In this document: one piece after another, positions 4,321 to 55,194 of the stretch
Position numbering within the stretch: the stretch's first letter is position 1
Layout: each line of letters opens with the position of its first letter
Position numbers and translations under genes: made by a program
From: Phoronis australis
Lineage: Eukaryota; Animalia; Phoronida
DNA: 63,535 nt
Assembly: GCA_002633005.1 (NCBI GenBank)
Contig: NMRA01000367.1
Coordinates: forward strand, 43,818-107,352
Reading direction: 5' to 3'
The notes under the pieces: generated by a model
Databases searched by the model: none
Told to the model about the DNA's origin: nothing
The model's input: only the letters and a program-made list of their open reading frames with translations

Positions 4321-4445
4321 GGCAAACACCGTCCACTGACTCACAAACACGGGAACGGACTCACAAAACACGATCCACGCACCCAAATACACGGGACACG
4401 GACTCATATTCACGAGGAAACACGGTTAACGGACCGCCAAACACG
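4321..4445 (+). repeat. Left TIR of element A (truncated by gap)
   Basis: Inverted match to 15929-16053; repeated ACACGG/GACTC motifs continue to ~4490. Confidence 0.9.
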
Positions 4446-4796: not shown

Positions 4797-6257
4797 ATGG
4801 CGAGCGTGAACAACGAAAAGATATTACCAGAAGCCTTTACTCAAGAGTTCTTTTCCATTTTAAACGAAACACGTAAGTTTTTACATCATGTTTGTTAATT
4901 CAATCGATCGCAAGTTTGGTGTCTGCGTGAAATTCATTGAAATTGCAGCATGTTCAATAACTCTTGATTTCTATAAACAATGACAAGTGAGTCGTGAAAT
5001 GCAAAAATTCCGGGAAAATATGTCAGCTGATCTCTTGTGGATCGGCGTCTGTCACGGATTTACTGGTACTGCAAGCAAGTACTCTTAACATCACATATTG
5101 CAAGTGGCTACTCTACCGTTAATATTTATGCAGCTCTTACTTTGCTGTATGTGTATGATCACTCAGAACTTTTTTTTTCAGCAGACAGTGTTATGCAAGT
5201 AGAAACCCGTGATCTAGAAAGAGGTAAGCAGTCCTGATAACTTTTTAGTGCTACTAATGTTCCCAACGACAGAAACCTTCAACTAAACAAAAGTTGTAGG
5301 TCTCGTAATTTATTGTTGTTTAAAAAACCGGTAATTGCACTTGATTTCTCTAAAGGTTTGGTATCCCAGGCAACATGACATAGTAGGTTAGGGCAAAAGC
5401 AGCGGAAATACTTGCAATAAATACACTAAATTAGGAAATGAATGCTTATAAAGATCTTTATATTGTATTGTATTTTTCAGTAGACAACGTGACACAACAT
5501 GACATTAGCCATTCTACTGAACAGCCCCCAGCACCCCACACAGACACAATTGCAGGTAAGACAACAGTTCACCATGGTCAACTTCCTAAAGTTTGCCTTT
5601 GGAATTCTGTTCAATGTCTCAAGTTTTGTGCAATTCAAAAAGGGCTATACCACTCAAATAGTACCTATGATAAGGTGGTGAATTGCTAATGTTGTGCTTT
5701 ACATTTCAGCCAACTTAGACTGTGAATTTTGTGAGAAGTCCTTTAGCTGTAGAAGCTCTCTGAACAGGCACAAGAGAGTGCACATCAACGCTCAAGGATA
5801 CAGTTGCAATGAATGTGAAATGAAATTCCACACACAAGTCAAAGTCGACGACCACAACCGAACGGTGCATGGTGCACCCAAATTACTCTGTGGTCGTTGT
5901 CCAAAGAAATTCATGACTGTTGACGGAATACGTGAGCACCAACACCTCCACTCACCAACAAAATACTATTGTCCAACATGCGGCATGGATTTCAATACAA
6001 AAAGAAATTTATCACGCCACATCTCCGCCCACACTCCACAACTGAAGTGCAAGACTTGTGACTGCAGCTTCATGACAAGGCAGCACTTGGAGTGCCATGT
6101 CTTGGCAATGCACACCAATACTGCCTCTTTCAAGTGTGACAAGTGCAGTTTTTCTACAAAGCATTTGCGGTCCATTCAGCGTCATGCACTTGGCCACGCT
6201 GAAACAAGTGCTTGTGTTCAAAGTGTGGGAAAGGATTTAAACGAAAGGAGTATGTAA
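4797..6257 (+). CDS. Spliced multi-C2H2 zinc-finger gene carried by element A (exons 4797-4872, 5182-5223, 5481-5555, 5710-6257)
   Basis: GT-AG phase-1 introns join in frame; six C2H2 fingers; a seventh finger (CSKCGKGFKRKEYVNKHERRC) lies in another frame after ~6205. Confidence 0.85.
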
Positions 6258-9200: not shown

Positions 9201-10559
9201 ATTCAATGCAGCCCGAGTTCTTGTCAGTAAATGGGTGGTGTCAATAAGACGAACTTCTAACTGGTTTCTGTTATTGACATACTGAGGACAATAATGCCGC
9301 TGCAGTGGATAGAATTCTTCCAGTCCTGCAATTATGATTTTCGTCAAAGGGGAGAGTCGCATTCCAGTCTGAGACTACTTCTATGAATCTCCACTCAGCA
9401 AAACTGATGTTTAATGCAGCCTTTGGATAGCTTTTCCCCATCACCACTTTCGTAGCCATTGCCATGAGTTTCGGGGGTGTTTTTCTCTTACTTGTCAGGT
9501 AGTCCCCAGACAGTCGTAATTTTTCAGCAATGGTACTGACAAGTGTAATTTTTTTTGATTGCCAATCACAACATGTAGCGCATTGCCTACAGTAACCAGC
9601 TCTGGCACTGTTAAACGTTGTAGAGAAGGAATATTGGTGAACAAAAAGGACATCTAATCATGTGATTTTTCTCGATACTTCATGTGAGACTGCTTAAGTG
9701 CCAAAATTGCATGAAGAACACCTGTTGTGTCTACTCCGTCTTCCGCATCTTGTTCTTGCTGCTGTTGGGTAGTTGCTGTGTCCATGGCAGCCAGCATATA
9801 TATTATCTCCTCTGCAGCATTATTATCGGTGGATATTACTTGTGGAGTCAGTCGAGGCTCATCATAGGTGGAGTTTGCGCCACAGGCAGGCAATCTGTGA
9901 ATCGCAGAACTTGGCAAGCAAAAATTATCCTTGAGTTTAACAGTGAAACTTCCCCACTCTCTGGTAATGACGTAACATTCATAGTTCAGTGTCTTGAACT
10001 CGACCAGCATTTTTTGCTTAGACAGGCTGCGTACTTCTTGCCAAAAGTCTCTCTGAAGTTGTGTCAATGTCATTGGTCTCCCACGTAAATCCCTACTTAA
10101 AAAATTAACAAAGGCTCCGTCGAAACTAACAACTGGTACATGAATGCCATCAGCATAGAGTTTATCTAGAAGATCCTCGAGGATTTTACGCATAATCTCG
10201 ATGGGCAAACTGTACCCTTTGAGCATGTAGCAGACGGGTGCTCCGAGGATTCTGCTCTCCTGGTTAACCCTATCAAGATCACTTAAGACAAAAGCAACCA
10301 TTTCGGTGGCCTTGTGCCGCAACAATTCATAGGTCTTCTTTAAGTTTTCTTCAGCTACATCAAACACTGTACAGTCCAATTCGCATGGTGTCAGGTCAAG
10401 GTCAGGTGGTTGGATGTATGCATCAGTAGGTACACGATACTGTTGTACCTGTTTACTTTCTCTGCAAACATGAACCGACTTCAGTTCAGCTACAAGCTGG
10501 CAATTGTCCTTTACCCTCTGTTTGATCAGGGCGAACAAGATCTTTGACGTTGGTGTTAA

Positions 10560-11160
10560 ACATATGGGTTTCTTGGCATCTTTCTTGTAAATGAGGCCAA
10601 TCTCGGAAACAGCCATATCCCAAACTTCCTGGTCAAATTCAATTCGAAACACTCTTGTCGTGTGTTCACGGAAGGAAACGAACAATGCACTGGTTGACTG
10701 AGAGTGCCACCACCTCGGCTTGAATTTGAAGATAGTATTGCGCTGGCACTGTAACATGATGTCTCTCCAAAAAGTACGGACATTTTATCTCTAAGGCAGC
10801 GATCGGAACACCATTTTCTTTCAAACAACCATCTGGAGAACTTATGGTGGACACTCCATCCAGGGTCATGGGTATGCCGCCTACTTCAAATAACTCCCAC
10901 TTTGGTTCAAAAACAGGCAAATACTTTGTGCACACAGTTGCAATTGCACAATTTTCATGTAAATTCCCATGCTCCATTGCCTGCCGAACTTCAAGTGACG
11001 GTTCTTCACGCGCTTTACCTAGAATCTGTTGTTCAAAAAACGCCTTCTGCTTTTTCAGTGAATCTCCGCCTAGTGCCTCAAATAGCCTGCTACCAGTGAG
11101 GGTGGCTTTACTCCTTGCCTCTAACCAAGCACTTGATCTCTGCTTTATGAAGGCAAGTCC
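10560..11160 (-). other. YqaJ / lambda-exonuclease-like PD-(D/E)XK domain within the transposase
   Basis: KQRSSAWLEAR...LTGS...AMEHGNLHE..A...SSPDG...LEIKCP...YYLQIQAE...FVSF. Confidence 0.9.
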
Positions 11161-13399
11161 TTTTGACATCACAGTTTGAAGGTCAGTCACATCCTCAATC
11201 ACGTCACTAACTGGTGGTAATGTGGCACTCCGTCAATAGAAATTGGCGGATCATGGCACCAGTTGCTAAACTTGGAATTTAAAACTGCAGCGGTTTGACA
11301 TAACTTGTCAATGATGGTGAGGTTTGTTACAAGTACTTCACGAATCTCCACTAGTGTAGCTATAAGTAAACTGATGACAAAAGAAAACCTGGAATTTCTG
11401 TAGTCTGGTCCACTCTCTTTTTGCATCTTTTCCAAGGCATACTCTTTTTTGATTGCATAGCTTCCAACTCTGCTCTTCGTTCACCCAAGTTGCTGACAAC
11501 ATCTTTGATGGCAGATGAGAGCACAGAGTCTGTGTTAGAGTTGCCCAAGCCTATGAATAGTGATCCAGCAGACTGCACAAACTCTATTTCCTTATCATGA
11601 CGGTTTCGTCTTTCTTGCAGCGTAGTATCGGGGTCATAACCTAATAAGTTGACATCCCCACGGTTTCCTCGTAATCCTGGAGCCACTTTCTTTCCATCAA
11701 GAGAGAGACAAACGCTTGTGTTTTGAGCACGAACAGCTACTTGCTGAGCTATTGATTGGCAATATCCAGGAGACAATTTCTCTGGCCAGTTGATACCAAG
11801 GGGTCTATAATTTCTCACGATGGCTTCATCTGGTATGGCAAGAATTAGGTTTAAGCCAGCATGGTTCAGTTGCTGATCTTGAGAGTTCCCTCTTATCAGT
11901 GCCCCCTCTCCACGCCACCCAGTGAGATAACGAAGAGGGGCTGTCCCCCATTTTATTTGGAAAAGCTTCCAAAAAGTTTTTGTTGTAGTCGAATACCTCA
12001 TGGCTCGTATACATGGAAGGTTTAACTGCTGCAATGTTTCTAAAATAATGTGAAATGTCACACTTGATGCTGTAAGTATGTCTTTGTCAAGTGCCATTAA
12101 CAGTCGATGAACTAAAAGCTTGTTCTTGTCTGAAGCTGCGCATACTTTAAGAAAGAATCTTGTCATTTCATCTGACCTGCAACTGAAAAAATCTAAATGT
12201 ACTTTGATAAAAGCTATAATTCAATATGTAAAGAACCAGCTCATAAATAAAAAAACTATCATATAAGCAATCAACTACTACTCCATCAGCAAGCCAAGAC
12301 CGGTCCTATCGTCTGGAGGAATAACTGATAACTTAAAATTTAAGTAGGTAAAAAGTATCTGCCAAAAATTTACCATAAGTTTTGAAAAAAATTTCAACGA
12401 ATATTTCAGAAAGTATGAAGACTCTTCACTAAAAAATAAAGTTGTCTTCAAACAGATTTCAAAAGAGGGAAGTCCTTTGAAAACATAAGAAAAAATGTTT
12501 ACCTCCCCTTGGAAAAGCTGTTTTCCTTCTCTGTCTTGATGAAGTCTGTATATTGTGTACTGACACCGCAGTTTGATTCTACACTGCATCAAAAGAAGAT
12601 CCTTTCTCACTAAAAACATCAATATCAATTTCAATTTACAAAGAACTTATTGTTGTAAACTGTACTTGTGAACATAAAAAATGAAATTAGGATATCACAC
12701 AACAGACTATTGTTGTTTTCATTTTTATTTAATCATCCCTGCTTAATGGAAGAAAATGTAAATGAATTCATGATGTCTGGTTTCATAAATTTTACACATG
12801 GTTAACAGTGAAATTGTAGTGAGCTTTACACGTAACGTATAGACACATAAGAAAACAACAGGTCGAACAAAAAATTCCTGCTGCCTGAAATGCTGGATGG
12901 AAGATTAAATACCAGAAAACCAAGTCGCTTCACTTAACAAAGCTTTGGAAGTAAAGCAATTTCAGTGAAAAGTGTGCAAAAGGCCTCTATAGCAAGAACG
13001 TAGGCTTGCTGAGAATGAACATTGCATTTAAGCACAGTGTATATCGCAATGGACTTATAGGGGGCCTAACTAACGTGCTCCCATTTCTGTTTTGCAGATT
13101 TTAACACCACTGTCCCACCATTATTATTTTTATTTAAAAAATCATCAAGTATGTACGTTTTTGTCGTATCTTGGAAAGGTTGTGGCTTGTTCACTGAGAT
13201 TGGTGAAACACATGGGGAAACTAATGAGCTCTGTTTCCTGTAAAAAAAGCAGCAAAATACAAGAAAAATGAAAAACCAAATGATCGCCGCACAAAAATTT
13301 CATGATAAACCAACGTTTCGGCTATTCGTTAGACATAATCAGGATATTTACATAAGACAACAAGTGCCAAGATACATCTCAGGTGACATCCATGAAGTG

Positions 13400-13615
13400 A
13401 AGTGAGAGATGTTTTCAAACCTCTTCGCAAACTTTCCAGCATGCTATATATGCAAACTGAAGTCACCCATCACTTTACTGAACTAGAGCAATGTTGTTTA
13501 TGAGGTTGAATTTGACAACTGTAAGGAATTCTATATCGGACTCACACAGAGACGCCTCTGTGACAGGCTGAAAGAACATCACACCTCAGAGAAAAGCAAC
13601 ATATATAGACATGTA
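13400..13615 (+). mobile_element. Penelope-like retroelement fragment (GIY-YIG endonuclease) in an intron of element A
   Basis: SNVVYEVEFDNCKEFYIGLTQRRLCDRLKEH...SNIYRH. Confidence 0.75.
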
Positions 13616-14970
13616 TGATGCCAATTTGTTTGCACAAAGTGCTGCCTGTTGAGAATTTGACTAGCCAGTCAGAAACGCCGGTGTAAAATAATTTCCCGAG
13701 GAAAATTAAGTGTTACCGCGTGCTGGCTATTGACCACCTAGCAGCACACAGGGAACCAGCGAGAGTTCAGTCTCCCGTTCAGTAACTCTAGGACCTCGCT
13801 AAAAAGCAAGACTTCGCAGGATTACGTGAGATGTTGCTGTGTATTTTAAATAAGAGCACCTGACTTTGGCTAGATCAAAGCTAGGTCAAATCGTAGGTCC
13901 TATCGTTAATGAACACAAGCCCAGTATGAAACAAGGGTTACCTCCATCAGTTTACTAAAAAAGAGGTTCAACTTAAAATTGAAGTTCCTTTCGAAGAACG
14001 GGAAGTATTCATAAACACATCCTACATTTATTGATTTTTCCTTATTCCAAAGAAATAATAGGTTACCTCTTACTGTTGATGAAACTGGGATAGTCATCTT
14101 CAAGCTCATGTTCAAAATGCGATTTTTCATTGGTTGTTGTTCCAGAAGTTGATGCATCACTGAAAATAACAAGACTGTCAATCATGCTGTGTTGATTTCC
14201 CGCCAAGAACTAACAGTGCTGTATTTTCACACACATCACAGCTTTATTACAAATCATAGACGTTCATCATAATGTGGAACGGAAGGTTAGCATGCATATG
14301 TTTCCAACCTAAATGAAAATCGGTTGACAAAAGTGTTATCAAACTTCGTGAATTCTTATAACCCACTCAGTTGGTACGTCCCACATGAAATATTGCAAAA
14401 TGGTCATATACCAAATTCAGTAAACAAGTTTTATTCTTCATTCGAATATAAATTGTAAAACAGTTTTTAAAAAATATGTATTTTATGTTGTTGTACACTC
14501 AATAGTGGACTTGACATGTTCTCCTTCCATTAACAAATTTGAATAAGCAAGCATGGTCTTACACTTGTGCATTAATGATTAAAGAATGTGCTGCTTCATT
14601 TATAACTTGAAAAGACCACAGACAATCACAAAAAGTAGAATTAAGAGCTCATAGAGAGGGCTGTGTAAGGCTGACTTTTTCAGAAATACTTAAATAGTGT
14701 GTATACTATCATCTGCTGAAAATTTACCTATCAAACATGTAAGTAGATCAATCTGGGTTTAAGTCTAATACTGGACCACGCAGTTACTTGAACCTGTGGT
14801 CAATTCCACCTGGTAATAATAGTCCTTGGATAATGAAGTATATATATTGTTTTGAGGAAATTGATTTGATAGGCTAATACTGATACGTACTGTGCACTCT
14901 GTGACATCAACCAGTATATTCAGCCAGTGCAAGTTAGGTAAAAATGGTAAAATTGAAAGACTGAGGTTGA

Positions 14971-15249
14971 GGGGTCAACGCTTGATTTCGAGTCTGTTCG
15001 TACCCTTACTCGCACCCAAGTTCCTTGTCTGCATGTGATCCAACCAGTAATTGTGTGATCAACTCAACAATTTTCATTTTCTAAATAACAGGTAATATTG
15101 AGTCATTTTGCACATATATATTTGGCAGGATTGATTGATTTTAAATATCGTATGCCAAAAATCAACTATTGAAACACTTTTGAAACTTGATCTGGGTAAG
15201 AGTTGGCTTGGGTAAGAGTTGACTTGGGTTCGAAGTGACCTGTTTCCCC
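14971..15249. mobile_element. Small MITE-like insertion in the first intron of the element A transposase
   Basis: Inverted sub-terminal repeats (cgtaccc/cgcacccaag versus ttgggtaagagtt..ttgggttcgaagtgacc); related fragment near 18106-18150. Confidence 0.4.
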
Positions 15250-15928
15250 AAGTCCAGGTTGAAACTAAATTAATAAAGTTTAATGTGATAAATATGACTT
15301 ACGTTACGTCTTGTCCACATTTACAGCACAAAGAAAATGGCCTTGAATTAGTTGAGTGACTACAATTGAGTAGGCCTGGGTTGTCTTCGTCTCCACATGC
15401 ACCACATTTTACACATAACTCGCCGGCTATATGCGTCAAATCACAGCCAGTTAGAGATGATCGCCAAGTCACTCCACAGCGTTCACAAAAACCATTTTCT
15501 GACGCGGCGAGAAATGAATGCGAATGAGAAGAATGGTGATATTCTTTTTCCAAATTACGTTTTGCCTGGCTGACAGATCTTTGGGGTGTCGAAAAATGTT
15601 TTCTTGGAGCAGATCCGAAAGGTGAAATAGGTGAAAGACAGGGTCTTTTCGAGTTAGAACGGTCCATGTCATTTTGAGAATAAAGCGCGCGAAGAAAGCA
15701 GGCGATAACTGAAGTCGCTAGTCTCACTGTCAAAATTAAGATTTGATGTTACAAACAGGTTTGGAAAGTCAATAAATTGCAGAACAAATAATTAGTTTCA
15801 ATAATGTTTATTGTTTCTAAATCATAACAATTACATCACAGTACAGACAAAAATAACATCAAAAATATATTTAATCTCGCACCCATTACACAGCTGTCAA
15901 CGCTGAAGTTGACATTTTGTCTGTTGAC

Positions 15929-16109
15929 CGTGTTTGGCGGTCCATTAACCGTGTTTCCTCGTGAATATGAGTCCGTGTCCCGTGTATTTGGGTGCGTGAA
16001 TCGTGTTTTGTGAGTCCGTTCCCGTGTTTGGGAGTCAGTGGACGGTGTTTGCCGGTCCGTGAGTCGTGTTCATGCGTCCGTTCCCGTGTTTTTGAGTCTG
16101 TTGACCGTG
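15929..16109 (-). repeat. Right TIR of element A (~180 bp, terminus 5'-CACGGTCAACAG)
   Basis: Inverted match to the left TIR; periodic CCGTGT motifs; followed by TAG and Gypsy sequence. Confidence 0.9.
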
Positions 16110-16245
16110 TAGTTTAGGTACCTTGACAATGACCATGGCAATTGGTCTCCCAGTAAAGTGGTTGAGGTGTCGGGGCAGATCTCCCGAATCATTTGTCGTA
16201 ACAACACCGGGTGGTGTCAGTATTCGCCGCAATCGAAGAGAGAAG
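16110..16245 (+). pseudogene. Gypsy integrase C-terminal (GPY/F-like) fragment
   Basis: RYLDNDHGNWSPSKVVEV / SPESFVVTTPGGVSIRRNRR, continuing the 3965-4319 fragment. Confidence 0.8.
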
Positions 16246-16287
16246 TTTTTAGTTATTAAAATAGTGTTAAATGACTCAGCGGGGAGA

Positions 16288-29229: not shown

Positions 29230-30279
29230 TATTTCCAGCGTACATTTCATTCTTCGCTACCGTGAGCCACTTCCTAAGCATTTCGGACTCTCGGTGAAGT
29301 GAAAAACAAACGATATACCCGCTTTCCTCGCAGCTGCTTAGTTTGGACAAGCGGGAACGATGCACCGCAACATAGCGGCAATCATTCTGCATATGAACCA
29401 CCGACGTCGCTAGCGTCGTTTCTCACGTTCCTCACAGGTTAACGCGACACCTCTTGGCAAGGTAAGGTCGACCGTATGCGAGGCGATGTGGATATAGATC
29501 GATTAAGACGGCAAAAAAGTCTAATTAAATCGGGTGGCATTCTCCTTTAAGACCAGGCAAAAATAGATAGAGGGGTGATAAACCCTATGTGACGGATTTG
29601 GATCATATTCTGCATTTTTGTTTACTTTCTTATGGTAATTACTAAAATGCACTTTAAACAAATTCTATCGCGTTAGGTAGCTTAAAAGTCGGGTACCTCA
29701 CTTTTCACTGAAAACCACTATCAGAACTTGCCCCAATAATCCCAGTTTTTGTGATATTGTAAGTAATTACAGAAGCTACTAGAAAATGAAATAGCTACTG
29801 TTTTGTATCCATTGTCTTCGTAAAATGAAAAATAAATGTGTCAAGTTGCACCTTAAATTCCACATTTCGGGTTTGAAAGGTCATGGGTTTATACAAGCAG
29901 AAAACATGGATAACTTGCCCAGGTTTGAGTCAATCTCCTCTGAAGCCAAATTTTACACTTTGGAACTTTATTGTGGGTTTGATCTATCTTAGTAGAATAG
30001 GTATTTGGCATCAAAACCACCGGCAAACACATGTCTTCATATAGTAATGAGCAATTGTTCGCAGCCACCTCAGCCAAAGTGAGCACTTGTGACAATAACT
30101 ACTAGTCATCGAAAATGTTGACTTTTGAGGTTAAAAAGTGCTCAAAAGGTTGTTAAATTATTGAGCTTACTTCTTAGAGAATAAAATTCAATAAAATTAG
30201 TATTTTTTGTATTTTTTTACTGTGAGTTACCATTTTGATGAAAAGCCCTTCAGGTGTCTCTGATATCACTGAAGAAAAC

Positions 30280-38160: not shown

Positions 38161-38314
38161 CACGGGTGAGAAACAACATGACTGCCGGTCCTCCAAATCG
38201 GACCGGCTCACCCAAAAAAGGACCTCCGGGAATCAAATGGGACCACAGCACCAGAAAATGGGACTGACACCCCTAAAAACATGACTGCCCCACCGGGGAC
38301 TGAACATGACCTCC
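38161..38314 (+). repeat. Left TIR of element B
   Basis: Imperfect inverted match to 50211-50383; GGACC/GACT motif recurring about every 20-22 bp. Confidence 0.85.
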
Positions 38315-38693
38315 AGACAAAATATTATTATCAATGGTTGTGGGTCATACTGGTTACGACGATAGTTTACCCGAGAACAAGTTATCCTCGATCGCATTTT
38401 TGACTTGACTAAAACGTTACATTAAAAAACTGAAATTAATTTGTTTTACAACTGACTCAGTGGATAAAATTATGTTTATACAGACAAAAATGCGCAACAT
38501 GCTTGGTTTTAAGTTAGATTTATTAAATCTAAATGTTGTTATGGTCTTTGGGCCAGAGGGTAGCGGCGCGCCATTTTCATCGAAAAAAAATAGTTTGCTT
38601 AATTTTTTACTATGTCCGTTGTTTTATAACGCCTGAACTGTTGAATGCTATTGCCCGAGGGAGGCTCGTAGTAGGGGAAGCAAAGGGCATCAA

Positions 38694-41600
38694 TTGTTTT
38701 CACCCATTTTGCCGCTAGTTCAACACGTTCCAGTGAAGTTTCCGTCGTCAACGCCAGCATCAAAGCGGACTCTATTCAACGAGCCATCTGAATCCTATGC
38801 CGATAAGTCCCACTCGCATTCATTGCTGGGCTTTGGAATATGTGAACGCTGCGGTCATCAGCAGCAAGGTCGGGCTGATCAATCGAACTCCAGTCACTCT
38901 CATTCCATGTTAGTGGGAATCTGTGACCGTTGTGGACTCACGGCAGAACCAGAAGATGAGTCGAGTAATTCCAGGACCATGACCATAGCCTCAGGCATAG
39001 GTCACAACGTCAGAGTTCACTGCAGTCATTCAGAAACTCCTGACTGGGAGCTGTGTTTCACATGCGGGTCAAGAAATACAGATCAACCTGAGTGAGTTTG
39101 CTCCGCATATTTTGTTCTAGCAGTGCTTGTGCTAATGTTTTTGAATTGATTCGGACCAACTACAGTACTTAAAAATATAAATTTATACTTACTTTTCTCC
39201 ATTTTAATGACATTAAAATTCATTACCTTATTCTGTTATGACGCCCTTATTTACTGAAATTTGAAATATATATTTTAAATTTATTTTAATATCAGATCAT
39301 TTTGTTAATTTCTTTATAGTTTTATTGATTCTGAATAAATTATACCACTCCACCGTGATGAGTATGGAAGACCTCCATGGTCTCCAGCACCTGTCCTGTC
39401 TCAAGTGGAGAATGGGTAATTAAGTCACATGCAGAGAATTTAACTCTAAGTGCATTCAATCAAGCTAGTAAACATCATCTAACCTAAAGGATGGTTTTAT
39501 GGCCAATGACTTTGTATATTTGAGTAAACGTGATTGTTTCACATAGCGACCGAATGCAGTACATCAGGTGAGTTCATGGTTAAAGACACTGTACATGTAT
39601 TTGTAAGGCAATGTGCACCTTGTCGCAATTTGATGTGTAATCACACAATTGACTGATGTTAAAACATTTACAAAAGGTAATGAGCCAAGACTTAAAGAAT
39701 TATGGTCATTACTATTTAAGTTAGCGTGTGCAATAAATTACAATTAAATTGAACTGTGTACTTGATTAATTTCAAATCATTTATTTGTTTTTATTTCATA
39801 ACATTGAGCATGACACCTTTCCCTCTCAAGGAATGAATGCACGTGGGAACAATGGGAACATGACCTTTGACTTGTAAGTAACTGATAAAAGTATTAAGAG
39901 TTACTGAAGAACACATACTATCCTGGTATAATGTTCATTAGATTTGTTTAATTCGTTTAATTCGTGTTGTTTCTCGTTAAAATAGTTAAGAACATATTTT
40001 GGTGATTTTAAATGCTCATTGTCTTGTAAAACCATAATTATCTTTCATCAAATTCAATGTTGTTTAAAGTGCAATATTCCATATTTCACATTAGATTTGC
40101 CAAATCTTTGCGTTACTTTTGATTTCTAAGTTGCACGATTCATTTACAGAGATGGTGAAGATGATCATGTACACTTGAAGATCTGTGAGCCGTTGACTCG
40201 TGTACTTCAGTTTAGCAGTGCACCACAACTAGTTGTCCAAGTCCTGTTGGCACTGGATTCTGGAAATCTCGATACATCATGCCTCACGAATAACATCATC
40301 CTTGAGACTGTTCTGCAACTGAATCTGGACTCTCTGTGGAACATGCGCTATATGAAGTTGTTTCAGCTCAAATTTGGAAGCGCACCCTTGCGGGTTTTGG
40401 CTGGGTGGAAGTGTTTTGGACAGTTAAGCCAATATGATGCCAACAGTAGTATTGATCCATCATTGATGGATGCTATCATAGCTGTTCCAGATCCTCGTTC
40501 CTTGGAAGATCACATTCCAGATCAGAACTGGCCTGATAAGCCGACTCGTGGTTATTGCAAGGAAGTGGCAAAAATTGTTTCCAAGTCAGCAGCAGGTACT
40601 AGCCTCTGTCTGGCGTTTGACGCAAAAAAGTTGCCCCCGGGAATAAAAGGAGACCGTGAGGACATCAGTCTTATAGGCCACGATACATGAAAGACATTGC
40701 TACAAACAAAAGAAGACCACGCTGAAGAACTTGCCCTAGCTTAATCAGCCAGGTCAAACTATAGCTCTGCCAGTGGCTGACATCATCCAAATGTTATCGA
40801 TACGACGGTTGCAGTTACTGGAAACACTACAGAAAAAGAAATATGCGGTAGAAAAGTTAAGAAAAGATGGTGGCCCTGATTACCGACAGTCAAAGTATTC
40901 CTTTGTGATTAGCCTGCTATTGGCAACTGTGGTCGAATTCCAGGAGGCCCCTGTGACCAACATGTCTGTTATTGATAATATGACAACTACCCTGTCATCT
41001 CAGTCAGTCAGATTGGTGGAATTTCATGACATCGATGCATTACAGTGTTCATCTGCACCTGAAGACATTGCCTTAGCACGCCACATTGAACGGAAGGGCC
41101 TCCCATTTGTGAAGCAAAGAAGTGCTGCGTGGTTTGATGTTAGAAAGGGTCATGTGACAGGAAGCCGGTTGTATGAAGCCGTGGGGGAGACACGTTATTG
41201 AATCAGAAGGCTTACTTCGATAATGTGATGAATGGTGACCATGAGACTGCAGCTACTCCAGAGGTTCGGGCTGCGATGAAACATGGGACGAGGCACAAGG
41301 GCTGTGCAACAGCAACTGTTTGCTCCAAGTTTCTCCCTTTATTTCATCACACGTCAATCTTCAAGGAAGTTGGTTGTTTTCCTATCGAATATAACAACTT
41401 CAGAGTTATCATATCACCGGACGGCTATGTGATAGATGAGAGTACCGGGTACACTGCAGCAGTGGAAAATAAGTGCCTACACTTTACACTGCAACCACAC
41501 CGGCACTTACCACCTCGCTATTACCTTAAATTCAAGGAGAAATGGTTGCATTGAACACTAGCAGCTGTCTTATCATTTGGTGTGGAAACGTGCAACGTTT

Positions 41601-44600
41601 TTGAAGTGAAATATGATGATGAAGTTTGAGAAATGGCAGTTGCAGAAGTCTTCACAATATTCAACCCAGACAGCCCTCGTCGCCCTGTATCACGATCTCC
41701 ATCATCAAAAGCTCTTAAGGCTATTAAATTGAACTGCAAAGTGAACTGCACCTTAATTGCTTGTGTCAAGTCATTTCATGTCTGTGGTATGCACGACCAG
41801 GAACCTACATCTATACAAGTTTATCCTTCTCTGAATGATATTTAGGAAAAAGCGAAACACACATGAAGAAAGTGTATCAGCTGTTGAGACAAAATGCTAC
41901 AGAGATGGTGGCGTTTGTGTTTTCCGATCTCGACCGAATAAATAGCGAAAATCGTGTTCTATGTGTGCCTGTGTGTTATTTTTAAAGGATTACAGTCTGC
42001 CAAACAGTATCATGCGTAGCATCCTAGTAGACTTACTAAACAAGTTGTGGAAGGATAGCCACTGACGATATTGAAACTACATACAGTAAGGATTGTTGGT
42101 TTGAAGTCCGTCAAACGTCAAAGAGTGTCATAATCAAAGCTTTCAGAGAAGCTGGAGCAGCTAGATATGCTTTTTCAAGACAAGGCAGTTGCTTGGTGGT
42201 TGAGTTGAAGCCTGGGGAATTGCTGCCATGATGACCAAAGAATGTGAAACATGAACTAACTCAGGAGGCACATGTATTTGTTGAGGACACGAACATGGCT
42301 GCAGGAGATTTAATGGCAAGGGCAGAAGATGCTGAGACAGATTTAAACTCAGTTGAAACAGTGGCCAACGATGAAAATACAGCAACCATATGTGCAGAAA
42401 ATGCCACAGAGGCCATTGTTTCGGTCCAATTGCATCAGTTCTGAGAAAAAAAGCATACCAGGTTCGAGGGTTACTCTCAACTAGCTTTGGAGGCGTTGTT
42501 TATAGACATGAGTATGCTCCAAAAATTTACTATTCCTGAACTGTTACAGTTATCACGGCTTTGGAATTAAGACTGCCACGAACACGGTTAAAGTGCGATT
42601 TAGTTAATGCAGTAGCATTATATAGGAGAGTTATAGCATTATAAGAGAGTTTGTGCCACGGAAACGAAGAAACCCAACGTCAATAGCCCTGCTTTGTCAA
42701 AAAGCCACTTCCAAGCTACCGAAAGTTGAGCTGAGTGCTGCCTACTGTGAGTGGGTGTTCCCATCAAAAGTAAGAGAATGGCAGAGTTCTTTGCCATTTA
42801 ACGTGCACATGACAATTCCTGGCTTAGAAGATTTCCAGTTACAGGGGTTTTACTCACATGAGTTCAGTGAGTCGAGACAACGAGCTGAAATTCGACGAAT
42901 TGATACCCCACACCTGCTTACAAGGCATAGGTCAGCAATAAATAGAGGAAACCTGGGGTCAGCTAGGAAAGGTGACTTCGTGAAAGTTGCAACTGAAATG
43001 AGAACTCCGTTGAAGATATGAATGATAGAAGACAACTTGAGTATACAGTCTACGGATTTCGCACAAATCACATTTTCGAAGGACGTTGAGAAGGAGTTGA
43101 CGCGTTTGGGTTGACTTTGTAGTGCAGACTTGTGTAAACAAGTTTGTAAGCACCTAGTTTAGCCTTCTTGGCATGATTACCTATGGCATAGGCTTAAAAA
43201 AAGCAATGTGGGATAGAAACTACTTTTTAAGTGTAAACTTAAGTTGGGAACTGTTTTCCTTCTGAACTGCGTTGCCCGAGATTTGATTGTTGATAACCTC
43301 ACAAAACTTGCATTAGACAGCTGTAGCCTTAAGAAATTATTTCAAATTATATATTTATTTGTTGCCCTTAGGTTTGTGAGTGGTTTCAAGCGTGCGATGA
43401 ACCTGGTATCCCAGCTTTATCTCGCTGTAGATTGAAACTTGAGTGAGTAGTATGTTTTTTCTCTTCTTTTTGCTTTTGCTTGAACTGGATACATTCAACA
43501 AGTTCCAGAACCAATCTTTCTGATTGCGAACACTAATTTTGTGTTAAGGTAACTAGAAACTTGAAATGCAGGTTTTTGCAGCACACCAGAGTAATTTATG
43601 TTATTGTGGATTCATTATAGTTCATCAGAACACTTGGAGTTGAGATAATATTTCTGTTGTAGCTTCCGCAAAGTATTAAATGAAAACTGTCATTAATTAA
43701 AATGATTAGTACATTGTATATATCGTTAAAAATAACAAAACTGAAACAATTTCTCAGGCCGTTTAAGACAATTTTATGAGCTATCAACATGACTTGATGT
43801 ACACAGGCATCTAAGGAAATTGATGAGCTTGGTGGATTTGACGTCATTCCAACCAACTGGTTCACACATATGTGGTTATCTTAAGGTTCTATGGGAGGCA
43901 ACAGTTGCTGTTATTGATGCTGACATTCAGCTATATGCCCTGGCCAAAAGGAGGACTGACAGCCAGAGATCTCTGGGCAGTCAGCCATGTGAGGGACTAT
44001 TCTCAAGTCTTGCAACTATGCCATCATTACATAATGGAACTCCAAGCTGTGTTGCTCAACAGACCGATCTTTGGAAAGTCTTGGGCGAAGGCATGGTCAG
44101 ACTAGATTCATCAAGGTATATGCCTTTAAAGGCGAAGGAAACCTTTTTTCATGTCATTTTTAGCAAAAATATGGTTCGTTTATTATCCTAGACATATTTT
44201 ACACTTATTTACGGCTCTTCGTAATTTAATTAATCACTCGTCGTCTACTGCGGAAGTGACGTATTGGGAGGCAAGAATTTCGCGCCAATTTCTTTTCATA
44301 TAGTCTGACTGTTAGAGCAGTCGAGTCAGTCATTGTTCTACCTCAGTTGTGATAAGTTCAATCGTCGTTTGCTTTTGCTTACGAGTCAGTCAACATGCTA
44401 CGCTGTTGCTGCGTACTGGAGTGTACTCACGTACAGAGGAAGAACTGTCCCACTTGCCCGACTGTCCCGCGACACACTCCCAATGGAGGGTGATCTGAGC
44501 ACCCAAACTGCTTACATACCGCCGTGTGACTCCCGCGCCACACACCTGGCACCTTCCAAGTAGCTCCAATACACCTCCACAATAAACTTATCAAACTTAG

Positions 44601-46275
44601 GCTCACCGATCTGTTCATTGGATGACGAACTGTCCTCTTCACCGAACTGGGCCTGTATTCACTTCCACTACTCAACATCGCTGCAGGGCTCTTTACAGGC
44701 TCTAGGCTAGAGACAACAGCATAGGGCGAATCACTGCTAGTTCCCGGAATTGCACGCAATGGGGTACGTTCGGAGGCACGGGTAACGGTAGATGAAGTGC
44801 CTCCAGTCACTGTATATTGTGGCCACAGCTCGCGAGACTTCTTGCTTCAAAAACGCACTTCTCGGGGTTGGCGACCGGGCACTGCCGGAAATATACAGCG
44901 ACGGTATGTTACCCTTCTTAAGGCGTTGTTTCGCAGGGCCCTTCATCAATTCCGCGTACATATCTCTGTCGTAATCTGACGGCAGAAAATGCTTGCCACA
45001 CTCGGTAACCCTCCATTGCTTTGTACGTTGCGTGGACGGGTTGCTCTGCGTTCTTCACATGAACGAGCTAGCCAAGTAAGGCGAAGTGTGTCATCCTTCG
45101 GAAAGCGACGCAAGGTACCCAAAGCGCGTGTGAGACGATAATGAGTACATCCCAGCACGCAGCAACAGCGTGGCATGTCGACTGTTGACTGTCTTATAAA
45201 CAAAAAAACGACTACCGAGGTAGAACAATGACTGACTCGACAGCTCTCACAGTCAGACTATAATGAAAAGAAATTGGCGCGAAACTCTTGCCTCCCAAAA
45301 CGTCACTTCCGGAGTAGAGGACGAGAAATTAATCAAATTAGAAAAAGCTGTAATTAAGTGAAAAATGTGTCTGGGATAATCAACAAACCTTTTTTGCTAA
45401 AAGTGACATGAAAAAAGGTTGCCTTCGCCTTTAAAAACATAACCATGTTCATGTCTCACATACTTCCAATATTAGGCCTTTATATGTTTTGCAAAGATCG
45501 CTATTTAATGTAAGGCTATAACAATTTGTAATATATTTGTTCCATTTTGTAGCCCCAAAAATTGTTCATGAATAAAGAAATAGGGAACAATTACATTCAT
45601 ATTACCTGTAATTATTAATATCGTTTGCAGAGATTTTTCCACTGCGATTATCTATAGCTCCAGTCTATCCAGAAAAGGTGCTTGCAGGAGATGCTGGTGT
45701 GTTACCTCTACCCCAAGCAGCTCCCACCTTCATAGATACCATCAGTATTAAGGTGTATTAGACCATTCCGTGCTACCTCATTCTTGTATAGATGAAATTT
45801 GTTATCTTACGTGATTATCTTGCTGCCATGACTGGATTTGTTTTATGCTGAATTGCTATTTGGATTATTGTGTTATTTAATTACCGCACCCATTCGGGTT
45901 AAGTTCAGGACTTTAACTCGATCAACTCAAAATCAGGGGTTGGATTTTAAACTAAACGCAATGAAACATGGGGCTTAAAAGAAGTTTGTTAAGTTTTGGG
46001 GTGGCACTTATCCAAGCCTTGGCGGTAAACCCAAATATAGGGAAACGATAAAATGATTTTGTTTTGTATTTTGGCATTTTCAGAACCGTTTGTTTGACAG
46101 TAAACACAGAAAGAGGAGGAAATCCAGAAGACCCACTGGCATTTCGAGTTTGCATGAGCCATCAAAAGGAGTCACTGGTGTAAGGTTCCATCATAAAATT
46201 AATGAAGGTGCAATGAATCCTTTGGTGAGGCTTGGTATTTCGACACGCAAATCTCTGGAAAGCTTAATTGGGTGA
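38694..46275 (+). pseudogene. Degenerate spliced P-like transposase with YqaJ domain (element B)
   Basis: Exon 1 to ~39091, large exon ~40150-43140 (CLAFDAKK, KQRSAAW, ISPDG, VENKC, IDTPHLLTRHR), then 43372-43442, 43807-44115 (SQPCEGLFSSL), 45632-45752, 46084-46275; many stops. Confidence 0.8.
44130..45430 (-). mobile_element. Kolobok-like THAP element with ~220-bp TIRs and TTAA TSD, in an intron of the element B transposase
   Basis: TTAA|aggcgaagg.aacc ... ggttgccttcgcct|TTAA; frameshifted THAP (MPRCCCVLGC..RFPKD..W / KHFLPSDY..RLKKGNIPSL) at ~44740-45177. Confidence 0.85.
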
Positions 46276-47339
46276 TTTACTTATCCACATTTTGAGTTTA
46301 CGGAACATGATTTTTCAGACTGCCTTCTTATAAGGAAGAGTGTACGTGGATGCTTGCATAGGCTATGAATCTCAAGTTTCAGTTTTTTGCTGTGTTCCAC
46401 ACCCTGTGCTGTACTCTCTTCTTAAGGAATGCACATTAAGAGAATCAAAATTAAACATTCGTGAGGTGACATGGGAGAAGCAGTAAATGACACTGATTTT
46501 TTGTTCAACACTATCATGACATCAAAGGCCTACATGAGACAACTGTCTCTAATTCGTCCTCCATAAAAGCACGTTTTGTACTTTCATGAAATTATCGTTA
46601 AGTCTTAATAGTTTCCAAGTGACTGAGCTGGTTTTAGAACTGATAGCCATGGAATACCTACATGTATGTAGCCACGAGAGTGGGGGGACACAGCATGTGT
46701 ATTGCTCGATTGAGAATCAATATGCTAATATATTTTGAAAGGTTAGCAGCAGTCTGAAAGAATTTAAAATTAAAGAGAAATTTCCTTCTTCCTCATTGAT
46801 AAAGCTTCCAGCCGTAGAAAACATTCATTTCGTTCATGATCTCCCTAGTTACATTCGATGGTAAAAATCCACTGCTTCTGTGTCAAAGAAAGTTTTGTGA
46901 CCGGTTTGATACATCAATTTTGCCAAAGCTGTTATTTTTTATGATAAGTAGCAAACAGGAAGAAGGAATGTCTCTTTAAATTAGAATTGCATTTACCTTT
47001 GAAGTGCATTTTACTACATTACTCAGTTTTGGCCGACCATAAACAATCAATGCTCAGCATTTCGCAACTCTTATCTACTATGCACTGAACTATGCTGATG
47101 AGGGTGGGGTCAAAGTAAAGTAAAACCTGGTTGAAGTAGAGCCGACAATGATGTAAAATAATGTACATGTATTAGTTGGCAACAACATTAGTGTTGCCTC
47201 GATTGAATCATTCCAGTCGGTCTTTGAAAATAAAAGTCATATGTGTGATGTTATTTTTGAAAGGTTGTCATTTTACATAGCATTGTGATAGTATGATTAA
47301 GTTTCCTTTTTATGAATAAAGCACAGCTTCAGTTTCATG

Positions 47340-47660
47340 CCTCGTCTGCTTTGAATTCATGCATACTGTGCGTCCGCAGTTTTTCTTCTCGCACTAATTG
47401 CACTGGTATGTAGTGGGTGAGTGCACCTCACTGTGTCGCTGCAACCCACTCTGTGGCGCAAAAGTACGCCGGCATACCTTGCAAGGTATTTTTTGGCCCG
47501 TGGCTTCCGCTTTCATGATCTTCACGTTCCGCTTTGCTTTAGAAGTGCCGGTGACACAGTTGGCACCGAAATGGCAACTTTCCCTCGTGTTCGTGAACGT
47601 GACGGTCCAATGCGCTGCGGTGTGTGAACTCCTTAACACAAACTGAGCAACGATGACTTT
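47340..47660 (-). pseudogene. Degenerate C2H2 zinc-finger exon of element B
   Basis: Phase-1 acceptor then CSVCVKEFTHRSALDRHVHEH, CQLCHRHF*..EDHESGSH, CKVCRRTF..GLQRHSEVHSPTTYQC; candidate upstream exons near 48140-48225 and 50083-50160. Confidence 0.8.
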
Positions 47661-48524
47661 CTGAAAATAAAAAAGACCCAAGTAAGCACAGAACAGGAAA
47701 AAATGAAGCAAATCTCAAAGATTGACTACAGAGCTGTCGGATCTGAGGTTTCCAAATTCACACTTTTTTATACAACTTACATATTGTGTCAGATCAAATA
47801 CAGTAGATTTCAAGATTGCTTACTAAGAGTGATTTTTCCTCATCGGAAACAGTTACGATACATGTACATTAAACAGTGGTTATTTAGTTAGATTTAGTTA
47901 GATTTCATTTTATTCATTTCATATAAAGTAATAGGAACCTCTTAAACACAGGAATTTATGCATAAGTCAATAAATTGCAATCTGATGGAATCTGATTTAT
48001 CCAGAGTAAGTGAGATATTATCTAGAATGGATAGTGAATGGACGTGAGACAATAATGCAAAACAATTGTAAAGGTTGACTCCATGGCATCAAAACTTACA
48101 TGAAATGTGAGGTATTGGCACAACAAGTGCTTTGGCCTCAAGTTGGTGTACATAACCACCGATTCCTCACAGCATCCTTTGATACAATTCATTGATACTG
48201 ACGCTTCTTGAACAGTGAAAGATTCTGTAAAGTAACATGTCAAATTTAGGTTAACTTGCACAAATGGTAGTAGACTGCAAGCACAGAGTTGTTAACGCAG
48301 GAATAGATATTTATTATCAGTTATTAGTAGTTATCAAAGGTGTGTTGAAATATCACTTCATACAACAGCCAGGCATTGCCGACAGAGCTTAAAAATTAGA
48401 GAGGTAACTAAAATTGGTGAAATTTTCACTGCACGTTAGTAAGTTACTGGGGGGCATCATGGCCTCTTCCGCTAACCACTAAGCATGCAGAGCACGTTTG
48501 TTACTCAATTATTGCACATAAGAA

Positions 48525-49845
48525 GGAGAGAGTGGGGCACTATGAGCCAATTTTCAAATTATTGGTCTTAACATCTAAATGAACAAACTAATTTCAGAAA
48601 CTAAAACACGATAATAAACTACAATGTACCCTTATTGTATATAATAATAAAAATAATGAGAATTGAAAAAGTGCAACATGTTTTTTGGTATTTTACGCTA
48701 GTTAGTCAGATGGCTCAAAGTACCCCTACTATGGGGCACTTTGATCCAGGCATGGGGCACTTTGATAAGTATAGTCAACAAAACGCATTCAATATCTTAA
48801 AAATATATTTGGTTACTTAATGCATGTCTTTGACTTGATACATGATACTGTTTGACGAAATAAGGAATAAACTAACTACCAGTTTAACCCAGGTTTTAAT
48901 CTAAACACGAGTCACACCTAAAGTCTCCTACACCGATATACGATGTGCAGGCTTCGTGAGCCCAGTCAAGGCAGGTTTTGCACTGTATCCAATCTTCTGT
49001 AATTGGTTCCACATATTGTTCATTGCATATCAGGAAGTAGTAATTTCTGACAAGGGACATGACACCTCCTTTCCTCAAACCTTTAGTGGATCGCTTTGGC
49101 TGTGATGTCATAGATAATGTGCCCGGCCGGGTTGATTTTTGTTAGTTCTTCGACGTTCTTTATCGATCTAGTCAGCTTTTTTGAGGGCTGCTATAATGTC
49201 AGCAGCTTTGCATATCCACGTTGGCGATTTTTGATGGTGGCTGCAGCAGTGGAAAAATGCGACATCAGACGGATGTCTAATACGTCATCGAAAGAAAAAT
49301 CTCAGTGTCATACATTCCTCTTTTAGTCTCCCGTTGATATTTTCTAATCATTTTCTACACTAAAGTTTTACACAAAAAATTTTAAAACTTGTTTAAGTTT
49401 TTGCTTACACAACGATGTGACATTATCAGCTGTGGCTCAACCTGCCCCGCACACTATCGCTCATAGTGCTCCATCTTCAAATTCTGAAACAAAACAAGAG
49501 TAACTCACTATTAGGTCAACTCTCAACATTGAAATGTATTGCTGCTTATAGCCCATTTCTACACGTATTATTACAGCTACATGTATCTAGTTCCCGTGTG
49601 TCTAGCCTATCGTTTATTACAGAAGGAAAACTAGCATACCTTGAAATTTTACTGAAGTCGGCGAATTATTAACAACACGCTACAAAATCCACATTTGCGC
49701 GAAACAGAAAATGATACAAAATGGTTTCACACCTTGCCAGCAGGAGCACATGCATGTGACATCTGGTGCCAAAGTATTGGCTTATTTTAATTTGGCAAAC
49801 AAAAGGAACATAGTGCCCCATCGCTCAAAGTGCCCAACTTTCTCC
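48525..49845 (-). mobile_element. Internally deleted pogo-like (Tc1/mariner) element
   Basis: TIRs ggagagagtggggcactatgagc / gctcaaagtgcccaactttctcc|ta; N-terminal MIRKYQRETKRG (psq-HTH-like) and C-terminal PHD finger (CNEQY..EDWIQCKTCLDWAHEAC..FRCDSC). Confidence 0.75.
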
Positions 49846-50210
49846 TACACCTTGAGGAAGTCAGAACTCAGTCAGGACAATGGGCTTTAATCCAACTCGA
49901 GTAACAGCACTGTCAAGGTAAGCTAAAGGCAACTCATGCTGAATAGGTCTACGTTAACAATACGTAACAATCCCATGTGTGATTTGTCACACGCTGCCGG
50001 CGGGGTATATCTATTTGGCCTAAACCTGCATTACTACAAAACCCAGTGGTACATGGATTTCATTATCACGCAAGTACATACCTGCCTCACGCAAAATGCT
50101 TAAAACACTGGAGAAACTCGACGTCCGACTTTGTCGTTGTTGGTGACTGTGCACGTACAGAGTCTAATGCAATATGCGGACCTTGTTTCAATTGCTTATA
50201 GTGGAGAGGC

Positions 50211-50383
50211 GGGAGTTATGTTTCAATCCTCGGTGGTCCTGTTTTGTGGTGGGACAGTGATGTTTTTAGGTGTGTCAGTCCCATTTTTCTGGTGCGGTGG
50301 TCCTATTTGATTCCCGGCGGTGCTGTTTTGGGTGAGTGAGTCCGATTTAACAGGACCGGCGGCCATGTTGTTACTCACCCGTG
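50211..50383 (-). repeat. Right TIR of element B
   Basis: Ends ...ttactcacccgtg at 50383. Confidence 0.85.
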
Positions 50384-52575: not shown

Positions 52576-53020
52576 GGTATTTGTGACTAAGTTGGCAAAT
52601 GACCCGAGCGATGCAATGTATTTAATGCATTTAGTAGTTGAGAAAAGACACATTTTTCGTCAAGGAGATCGCAACAATTAATCAATCTTTCGGGGTGAAA
52701 AGGAAACACTGTTCGACACGACAATAATGAATTATAGGGAACAGGTGATGTTCCCCTCAAAGCGAAATTTTGACCTACACAACCTATGCCAACCTCCGAG
52801 CGTTGTTACCCACTCAAGTACAAACACTGATCACCAGGGGAGTAAAATGCACATGTACTCTGCAAAGTGACTATATTTGTGGGACTTTCCTGGGATGTCG
52901 GTTTTTTAAATGTAGCCGAAATGTTGATGGACACAAAGCAGGTTACTTCCCTGGAATTTAACATAACGCGAGCCGTACGTCAATAGCAAATCTGCCATCA
53001 CAATACACCCTTGTACTTAC

Positions 53021-53359
53021 ATAAAACTTCTAGCTTTAAATTGACTTCAACTTTGTGCCACCGAGCGAATGTATTAAGCGCTTGGAATTTCAACGTCAAG
53101 CCCTGATGCCGTGCCTCTGGAGAGTATGTTAATTCTTTCCATATAATAAACGACGGGTGTAACTGACTTCGCTGCCTTTTTGTTACAGAAATGTTTCCAC
53201 CAGGTGCGTCAACGTAAATCGAAGCGTTTGGGTATACGTAGTTTGTGTAAACGATCAATTCGTGAACTCTTCCGCAAACAACAATGTATTTGCCAGAGTA
53301 CAAGCCATGCCATTTTAACTTGCCGACTGTTGATTGGACAGATAACGTCGTTGGGCCAT
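53021..53359 (-). CDS. Host gene exon: Ig-like domain lacking the canonical cysteines
   Basis: 339-nt open phase 1-1 exon: GPTTLSV...ELIVYTNYVYPNASI...ELTYSPEARHQGLTLKFQALN...LKLEVL|Y; splices in frame to 35312. Confidence 0.75.
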
Positions 53360-55194
53360 CTGTAGTTGAATCAGATGCTAATATGTATTACAAGTACATG
53401 TACATCACTTTATTAAATCTGATAAAAATATGTGTGCAACTATTTGGGAGCTACTCGATTGTCTAAATGAGCCCTAGTCCTCAGGTTCCCTGGCTTGAGC
53501 GTCTACTGATCAGGCGAACTAAGCCTTGAGACACAATTCTGACGACATTCTACGATACTCACAATTACGTCAAAAATGACTGCACTTTGATTTTTACGCT
53601 TGGCTTGCCTGTCGAACGGAAAATATATTTGGAAATCGTCACTGGCAACCAATCAAATCTCCGCCGAAGTATAGAAATCAAGTGCAGGCAAGGACAACGA
53701 AGAAATGACAAGGCATAGTATGTTTAAATGGAATTACCAAAGTGATCAATTGCAATGATAATTTTCGTTTTAAACTTAAAATTAGTGAGATTCTGCTTAA
53801 GTTCACGTGCTTCACCAATGGTGTTCCAATTTTTGCAACTTCATCGAGACATCAATCGTGATCAACAATGATTCAAATCTTTCTTTCACGGGTAAAGCTT
53901 CTGGTATGGGTTTTATCACAATGTACGCCCTCGCTCATGCGCAAACGTAGCAGTATTTACAAAAAAAACGTGAGTGGGTTTTTCAGCCCATACAGAGACG
54001 TGTGAAGTGGAAGAATCGCGTTGGGGCGAAGGGTCGTCGGAACCATGTTGTGTTGGAATAAAGACATCACATAGCCCCTCGGCTGGCCAGTTAAGGCATA
54101 CAATACTTCCAATCACATTCTGTACGAATTTTTCCCTTGCATTTTAAACGGGCGGTAGGCAAAATCCTCTCTCCGTTTGAGAGTTTTCACGTCGTCAAAA
54201 ATACACTCTACACTTAACACTGTGGCTTAAAAAGCGCTTAATTTCTTCGGTGGTCCTCTCTACTTGTACACATGTCTTCGATGAAGTATACATGTAGCTA
54301 CGAGATGTAAAGACATGCTAAAATGAGCCAACTGCCTTTTAGATATGTTAAATATATGCACTTTTGTGCAACATGTCTTTGTTTCGTATTATTCCACACA
54401 ACCACTAACTATTTATCCACATTTTACGCTCCCCATATTATGTGCCCTCGCCGGAAAGCACTGTTATTGTCTGAACGAGTCACAGCAGACTGGTCTATTG
54501 ACATCATCGTTGTGAGCAACACATTACCGCACCAACCACAACCTGAGCAGCTGATCGGCTGCCGGGATAGCAAAAAATTAAGAAGTTTGCTCAAGAAACG
54601 TCACCAATTAAAAACATCGCCTACGTTAGGCATCAGTATCCATTGATAATGCCATTACAAAGCAGAACAATCATGTCAGGTAAAGCACTCTTCGAAACGA
54701 GCAACGGCGTTGATCTCGGATAGGGCGCTATCGATTCCCTCACGACCCGAAGGCGAAACAATTTTCGAAGTATTTGAACCCATGTAAAATGCAACACAAC
54801 AGCTACCTTTCATACTAAACCTGACAACGGCAAACTTACCGAACATGTGGTGAAAAAAATATTTATTTTTCACGTAAGGTATTTGGATTCTCCACTGAAA
54901 ATATCCCCGAAAATAAATCATCGCCGCACTGGTCGGTATCATTTTATACGATCGTGACTCAGAGATGTCGTCAATTAACTGAGTGTGTGAATGTACGGCT
55001 CGTTTTTATCGTAAAAAACATGCGTGAAGATGACAACCCTTGCCTTAGTAGCAAAACGACGGTCACAACTTGTCAAGCGTCAGAGTAATCATACGTCGGC
55101 AACAAATGGGGCTATTCGGAAAATCTACAATAACTAGAGGGCGCGCGAAAACTAGTGGTGATAGATTAACAGCCTCGATTTCGTGAGCCCTTTA

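Follow-up and report, generated by a model that had tools for sequence, protein, structure and literature searches.

The window analysed here is a 63,535-nucleotide (nt) stretch of the phoronid Phoronis australis (assembly GCA_002633005.1, contig NMRA01000367.1, positions 43,818 to 107,352 of the forward strand), and all positions below are those of the window. It holds two diverged mobile elements, A and B, and raises the question of what kind of transposon carries the gene pair common to both. Element B is a DNA transposon occupying 38161-50383, with terminal inverted repeats (TIRs) that start with CACGG at 38161, end with CCGTG at 50383 and are 86.8% identical over 136 nt. Its main gene, encoding a transposase, lies on the plus strand and a C2H2 zinc-finger gene lies on the minus strand, the two being tail to tail. 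Considered together with their relatives, A and B probably represent a two-gene, P-derived DNA transposon with a YqaJ-bearing transposase and a convergent C2H2 protein that would bind ~21-nt repeats in the element ends. The features involved are:

38161-38314, plus strand: left TIR of B, CACGG start, ~21-nt degenerate sub-repeats (A-run plus GGAC)
38637-39093, plus strand: first exon region of the transposase, three H-x(n)-CxxC repeats
40150-43141, plus strand: large transposase exon (inferred bounds), N-terminal domain through DxxH
40619-40621, plus strand: inferred first catalytic aspartate (D1), within the large exon
41082-41580, plus strand: YqaJ/lambda-exonuclease-like domain, decayed in B
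42902-42913, plus strand: DxxH motif, within the large exon
43372-43442, plus strand: 71-nt exon, phase 0/phase 2, counterpart in A at 8407-8477
43807-44115, plus strand: exon with the inferred catalytic E (43991-43993), donor position common to A and the metagenomic locus L001
45631-45752, plus strand: small transposase exon
46084-46275, plus strand: last transposase coding exon, AATAAA downstream at 47229 and 47315
47380-47660, minus strand: exon of the convergent C2H2 zinc-finger gene, with three whole fingers and a fourth that is broken
50232-50383, minus strand: right TIR of B, period-21 array at 50240-50279
4321-16125, minus strand: element A, right end at 16125 beginning CAAGG

The large exon of B contains, in order, the N-terminal domain, the inferred D1, a coiled segment, YqaJ, RNase H strands, a SAP-like region and DxxH, and the H-x(n)-CxxC repeats of its first exon region are also present in A and, in two copies, in a Lingula anatina protein. 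Introns were inferred from GT-AG signals and homology. To judge from its reading frames B is a dead, heavily decayed copy, unable to encode an active enzyme: alignment of its large exon to the intact Lingula protein revealed 8 stops together with 9 frameshifts, where A has 1 stop and 5 frameshifts, and a deletion near 42060 of the SFDG motif, which contains the second catalytic D (D2). The finger exon of B is interrupted by 2 stops and 1 frameshift; no upstream exons of this gene were found in B, and an apparent match to one was dropped as it lay on the wrong strand. Contig depth was flat at ~45 over the coding region and much higher over the left TIR, suggesting a single coding copy with numerous short relatives, summed depth not being a copy number; the ends of B live on in many non-autonomous relatives. 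RNA reads of run X5 over 46013-47293 were one-sided (12.3, 8.7 and 12.2 versus 0.2, 0.5 and 0) with the signal dropping near the AATAAA at 47229/47315, and the bias was weaker in run X6; this pattern is no more than suggestive, the library strand not being on record. RNA over 48575-49428 was rejected as a finger-gene transcript, since it shows many fixed differences and falls within a nested element bearing a PHD finger.

Relatives of the transposase were sought by profile and sequence searches. A profile of the DxxH region identified 2 of 3584 candidates, L. anatina XP_013399595.1 (1435 amino acids) and a Ptychodera flava protein, whilst the Lingula protein used as query found one relative besides itself, from Branchiostoma belcheri, among 7994 scored. 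These intact relatives have transposases of ~1,400-1,600 amino acids with D, D, DxxH and E together with YqaJ, and all are annotated as uncharacterised or hypothetical. Near-identical copies occur on different scaffolds in two species, among them the B. belcheri proteins of 1536 and 1599 amino acids, and Ptychodera members lie on 3 chromosome-scale contigs. An unnamed 58-member Atlas cluster has the same architecture (1399 amino acids, YqaJ in 64%, score 0.98), with members on several contigs per species. Of 67 candidate stretches in a metagenome scan 2 were confirmed, L001 and L002, which form one family that is 29-31% identical to A and B; in each an intron-containing C2H2 gene lies downstream of, and convergent to, the transposase. 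The convergent C2H2 gene is thus present at 4 of 4 readable loci (A, B, L001 and L002), from 3 families and both deep branches, a count outside which the Lingula, Ptychodera and Branchiostoma neighbourhoods lie. In a six-sequence C-terminal tree A, B and Lingula formed one clade of unresolved internal order (55-62% identity) with Ptychodera next, and B. belcheri plus L001 formed the other deep branch at 29-34% to A and B, the L001 identities being slightly too low because a small L001 exon stands in the wrong frame within the tree alignment. Tandem ~140-nt repeats were noted by eye between the converging genes of L001 (3240-3900) and also of L002. A search with a 376-amino-acid frame of A found no homologue among 2301 long candidates, locus scans of viral contigs and prokaryote genomes found no matching locus, and the taxonomic range of the family is under-sampled by these searches. 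A full-text literature search, outside which Repbase Reports and most subscription journals lie, returned no description of the architecture; the group may already have a catalogue entry, although on balance we do not expect so.

The element ends and the finger protein are the parts most readily related to one another. In the TIRs of both A and B the top autocorrelation lags fall near 21, 42 and 62, the units consisting of an A-run plus a GGAC-containing part, and the common ~21-nt period appears a firmer point of likeness than the shared GGAC 4-mer. In A the transposase occupies ~15667-7031 on the minus strand and a six-finger C2H2 exon 5710-6257 on the plus strand; six fingers would contact about 18 bp, approximating one 20-21-nt TIR unit. 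The THAP domain (PF05485) was absent from the Lingula protein, both B. belcheri proteins and the transposase open reading frames (ORFs) of A and B, although the annotated N-termini may be incomplete. From the lack of THAP, the six-finger protein and the 20-21-nt end units we infer that the finger protein reads the TIR units. P transposase finds its ends via THAP and makes a 17-nt staggered cut, the donor break being repaired by homologous recombination or non-homologous end joining (accessible text of PMC7776569). The present element would most likely be of the cut-and-paste type, and the chances appear evenly balanced that its six-finger protein replaces the missing THAP, recruiting or regulating the transposase at the ends. 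It is possible, if somewhat short of an even chance, that the tethered nuclease trims the non-transferred strand, or the broken donor site, in the 5'-3' direction; such resection could yield P-like 3' overhangs, or steer repair to homologous copying and so restore the excised copy. Both the finger-reading and the nuclease-processing steps are offered as proposals only.

A different role for the finger gene deserves consideration, namely that of a carried regulator (an autorepressor or anti-silencing factor acting on element promoters or host genes), with the N-terminal H/C-CxxC repeats and helical domain of the transposase binding the ends. The transposase does have candidate DNA-binding parts of its own, in the zinc-knuckle-like repeats at its N-terminus and in a weak SAP/Rho_N-like motif, the base-contacting finger positions vary between families, and P elements encode repressors (PMC7776569, accessible text). 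We nevertheless regard this role as rather doubtful, given that the B. belcheri protein is without N-terminal CxxC repeats, that finger number fits the length of the TIR unit, and that an essential role would fit both the missing THAP and the keeping of the gene by families ~30% identical.

The reading of the element as P-derived draws on the order and spacing of the transposase motifs. In the Lingula protein these are DGKK (D314), YqaJ at 504-643, SFDG (D846), DxxH (D1125) and E1291, and the SFDG, ID..HLL and E motifs are invariant in the sequences covering them. The region before D1 appears to resemble that of P transposases. P-type termini follow the consensus CANRG, although a full-text search did not return it. 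The Drosophila P transposase triad is D230, D303 and E531, with D339 in the DxxH motif (PMC8230255 and PMC7776569, accessible text), and DxxH is common to P, hAT, MuDR, Kolobok and Dada (accessible text of PMC9587614). PF21787 (P-element RNase H N) gave sub-threshold matches to the strand-helix-strand-D2 segment in all 4 of the divergent sequences that retain it (Lingula, B. belcheri, L001 and A; E values of 0.2, 0.042, 0.045 and 0.17), covering only profile positions 63-130 of 137, and such a half-profile match would be the pattern expected from an insertion after the first strand. Among the matches listed for Atlas neighbours of the C-terminal part, 8 of 9 carry P-element families (score 0.77-0.79), which serves as a lead only. 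YqaJ (PF09588) was matched in A, Lingula and Branchiostoma, with its PD-(D/E)XK residues intact; the nuclease motifs HG..HE, SPD and EIKCP are preserved in A, Lingula and B. belcheri but degraded in B, and the sole match in PDB sequence searches was the lambda-type exonuclease 3syy (E 6e-5). The D of DGKK is probably the first catalytic D, which would place the nuclease within the RNase H fold, after strand 1 and before strand 2. In P transposases a helical, GTP-binding insertion splits the RNase H fold, and the 17-nt staggered cleavage depends on GTP; as to such a fold, neither the AlphaFold models, which were of low quality (mean predicted local distance difference test scores of 48.1 and 45.3), nor Foldseek searches with them (no match at E<=0.001), nor VIA-align (generic helical bundles only, best Z 8.6) gave evidence either way.

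Several results count against P ancestry or against the wider scheme. All PF21787 matches fall below the curated cut-off of 24.6 bits, transposase Pfam scans gave no match to PF21788, PF21789 or PF12017, and the D1 segment searched alone gave none. P families have target-site duplications (TSDs) of 7-8(9) bp (accessible text of PMC3698922), absent from the flanks of B, the single old copy tested (matches 1/7, 2/8 and 2/9); perfect direct repeats 2-12 nt long are likewise lacking around B with the terminus shifted 0-3 nt outward. The GGAC core, chosen post hoc, is weak evidence, the finger similarity of A to B (51 bits) only equals the best scores reached by unrelated C2H2 arrays (50-55 bits), L001 and L002 come from a single sample and represent a single family, and the joints listed for the RNA runs included no splice joint, in runs where high-copy nested repeats dominate. 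The evidence for the P superfamily is therefore weak but consistent; P-superfamily ancestry is in our judgement quite likely, whilst strict membership is not established, with no THAP, no TSD on the single testable copy and sub-threshold domain matches.

The CAC terminus of B raises the alternative of a CMC (CACTA/Mirage/Chapaev) element, which appears improbable. The CACGG start is also found in the EnSpm-like CNEST of Cryptococcus (10.1101/2025.05.19.654958, accessible text) and CMC TSDs are 2-4 bp (PMC4482050, accessible text); at these lengths the flanks of B match at 0/2, 0/3 and 2/4, and the last could be a decayed 4-bp TSD. However, A begins with CAAGG. A-family contigs and reads extend past the CCGTG at 16109 as far as 16125/16126 before diverging (23 + 18 contigs in X1, 60 + 40 reads in X6 and 90 reads in X7), so the true end of A lies 16 nt further out and its CACGG is a sub-terminal internal repeat. 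EnSpm, RAG1 and Plavaka families were not matched in any Pfam scan, whereas the P family was matched repeatedly and the Atlas neighbours are P transposases.

Descent from a rearranged KolobokE or ISL2EU element is more improbable still. KolobokE targets TTAA, and the flanks of B are neither TTAA nor AT. Both groups do carry a lambda-exonuclease/YqaJ domain, KolobokE alongside a DDE transposase with DxxH (PMC9587614) and ISL2EU within a two-gene TIR element (PMC4482050). According to the accessible text of these sources, however, the KolobokE nuclease comes downstream of its transposase domain, no convergent C2H2 gene being described, and ISL2EU has its YqaJ in a second ORF, THAP on the transposase, TIRs starting with GG and an AT TSD. 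In the element described here the nuclease precedes D2 (504-643 versus 846 in the Lingula protein), YqaJ and transposase share one ORF without THAP, and the termini are CA-N-GG.

The sequence-only reading had proposed that B is a separate, deeply diverged element with the gene order, convergent orientation and motifs of A, and this was borne out. Six-frame comparison showed the transposases to be colinear in opposite orientation, with similar C2H2 genes on the other strand. The proteins are 52% identical over 677 codons in ten in-frame blocks, colinear from first exon to last, and DNA alignment retained four patches only (68-74% identity, E<0.01). Identity at codon positions 1, 2 and 3 was 61%, 73% and 34%, and four-fold sites were 28% identical versus 27% by chance (n=146); with synonymous divergence (dS) saturated and nonsynonymous divergence (dN) about 0.40, A and B are old families that purifying selection maintained. 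The shared 71-nt exon is likewise as had been read, being of exact length, flanked by AG/GT, identical at 52/71 nt and translating as quoted, and with three more it makes four C-terminal intron positions common to A and B, phase included. In A and B alike the finger exon opens at a phase-1 acceptor placed four codons ahead of the first cysteine, and the arrays have the same finger spacing and HG..K linker; as the finger scores do not exceed those of the best unrelated arrays, orthology of the two finger genes is argued from spacing and intron position. That B arose from A by recent duplication, or that its finger gene is a chance nested insertion, can be set aside almost entirely, since although both elements hold other, truly nested insertions, synonymous sites are saturated, the TIRs cannot be aligned, the finger-exon acceptor is conserved and the same layout recurs, convergent and intron-containing, in L001/L002.

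Two further proposals of that reading stood in part. The TIRs of A and B indeed do not align significantly beyond CACGG (301/1000 and 57/1000 dinucleotide shuffles were as good), but CACGG is not the terminus of A and so is not a shared end. An old, stable design is supported by L001/L002, whereas the 71-nt exon used to argue for it is specific to the A/B/Lingula subclade: L001 is without the two introns around it, the exon is absent from that distant family, and of the L001 introns one position matches A/B exactly, one falls within a base and one is its own. A and B share 55% identity, no more than they share with Lingula (62% and 58%); they are thus two sister families within a single subclade, and it is L001 that gives the design its true depth.

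Two foreign elements are nested in B:

44130-45430, no strand assigned: nested element in a transposase intron, ~300-nt TIRs, TTAA duplication, AGG...CCT ends
48524-49846, minus strand: nested element in the zinc-finger gene intron, PHD finger at 48902-49141

The first, which we take from its hallmarks to be Kolobok-like, is non-autonomous, its TIRs being 81% identical and its THAP remnant frameshifted; in 82-96 contigs the ends of its relatives fall precisely here, it is of very high copy, with by far the highest contig depth in B, and RNA is abundant on both strands. The second, presumably pogo/Fot1-like, has inverted ends containing GGGGCACT, and diverged relatives of it are transcribed in both RNA runs. 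Around B, 17087-37900 and 52998-53900 appear to be tandem host genes on the minus strand with immunoglobulin-like and TSP1 exons and a membrane-spanning tail, within which repeat pairs occur at 17087/34986 and 22039/53232. B is probably intronic. Elsewhere in the window a THAP-domain ORF (PF05485, E 2e-15) adjoins five 238-nt tandem copies (2441-2863 and 2920-4106), with related pieces near 25528 and at 29305-29551, and two more dispersed repeat families have two copies each (25606-25995/51807-52181 and 24265-24964/35803-36489).

Element A sits inside an integrase remnant (4003-4319 and 16126-16260) that we take from its motifs to be of Gypsy type, no Pfam match being obtained. Its left end is lost in a one-N gap at 4320, where its TSD is unreadable. 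Position 4252, at which a 7/8 repeat of the right flank is followed by CATGG, was set aside as a left end, 4237-4319 reading as continuous retroelement integrase; the 13-nt stretch 4244-4256 matches the right flank 16126-16138 at 12/13, and the next 20 nt resemble the A terminus. An insert at 13300-13900 contains a GIY-YIG fragment (PF01541, E 2e-4; Penelope-like), followed from about 13770 by a very high-copy repeat, and a contig joint 4574/15712 with a depth of about 600, also seen in RNA reads, points to a short internally deleted A-family derivative.

Element B itself is a fossil only, and the interest of the group lies in its design. At least two other groups of DNA transposon, ISL2EU and KolobokE, have taken up lambda-exonuclease-like domains, for which the accessible source texts give no function. 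Here the nuclease is fused to, and apparently lies inside the catalytic fold of, a P-like enzyme, the chemistry of the P family being well studied, and as Lingula and amphioxus have intact ORFs, what such nucleases do can be tested directly. A C2H2 gene kept across ~30%-identical families offers a natural system for the co-evolution of fingers and binding sites and a possible route for the spread of C2H2 genes in animal genomes. A stronger claim, which we think unlikely, would make it an undescribed, superfamily-level P-derived branch with a split enzyme, C2H2 end recognition co-evolving with the 21-nt units, an exonuclease in the RNase H fold that makes a long 3' overhang or resects the donor break, and possibly TSD-free insertion; on that claim the element would move C2H2 genes about in brachiopods, hemichordates and cephalochordates.

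Among known systems, ProtoRAG/RAGL, Harbinger and CACTA elements also pair a transposase with a partner gene, tail to tail and in marine invertebrates in the case of ProtoRAG. The partner here differs from theirs in being a C2H2 array, not RAG2-like, Myb/SANT or TnpA, and RAG1 was not matched. From the P superfamily the element differs in its ~12-kb size with a second, convergent C2H2 gene, in having no THAP and, on B, no TSD, and in the spacing of its motifs, with 532 amino acids between the inferred D1 and D2, enclosing the coiled segment and YqaJ, versus 73 in Drosophila P, and ~280 from D2 to DxxH versus 36. With Galileo it shares long, internally repeated TIRs, and with the P superfamily an intron-containing transposase, the order D, D, DxxH, E, a DxxH-to-E distance of 166 amino acids versus 192 in P, and CA...TG termini (CACGG in B and CAAGG in A).

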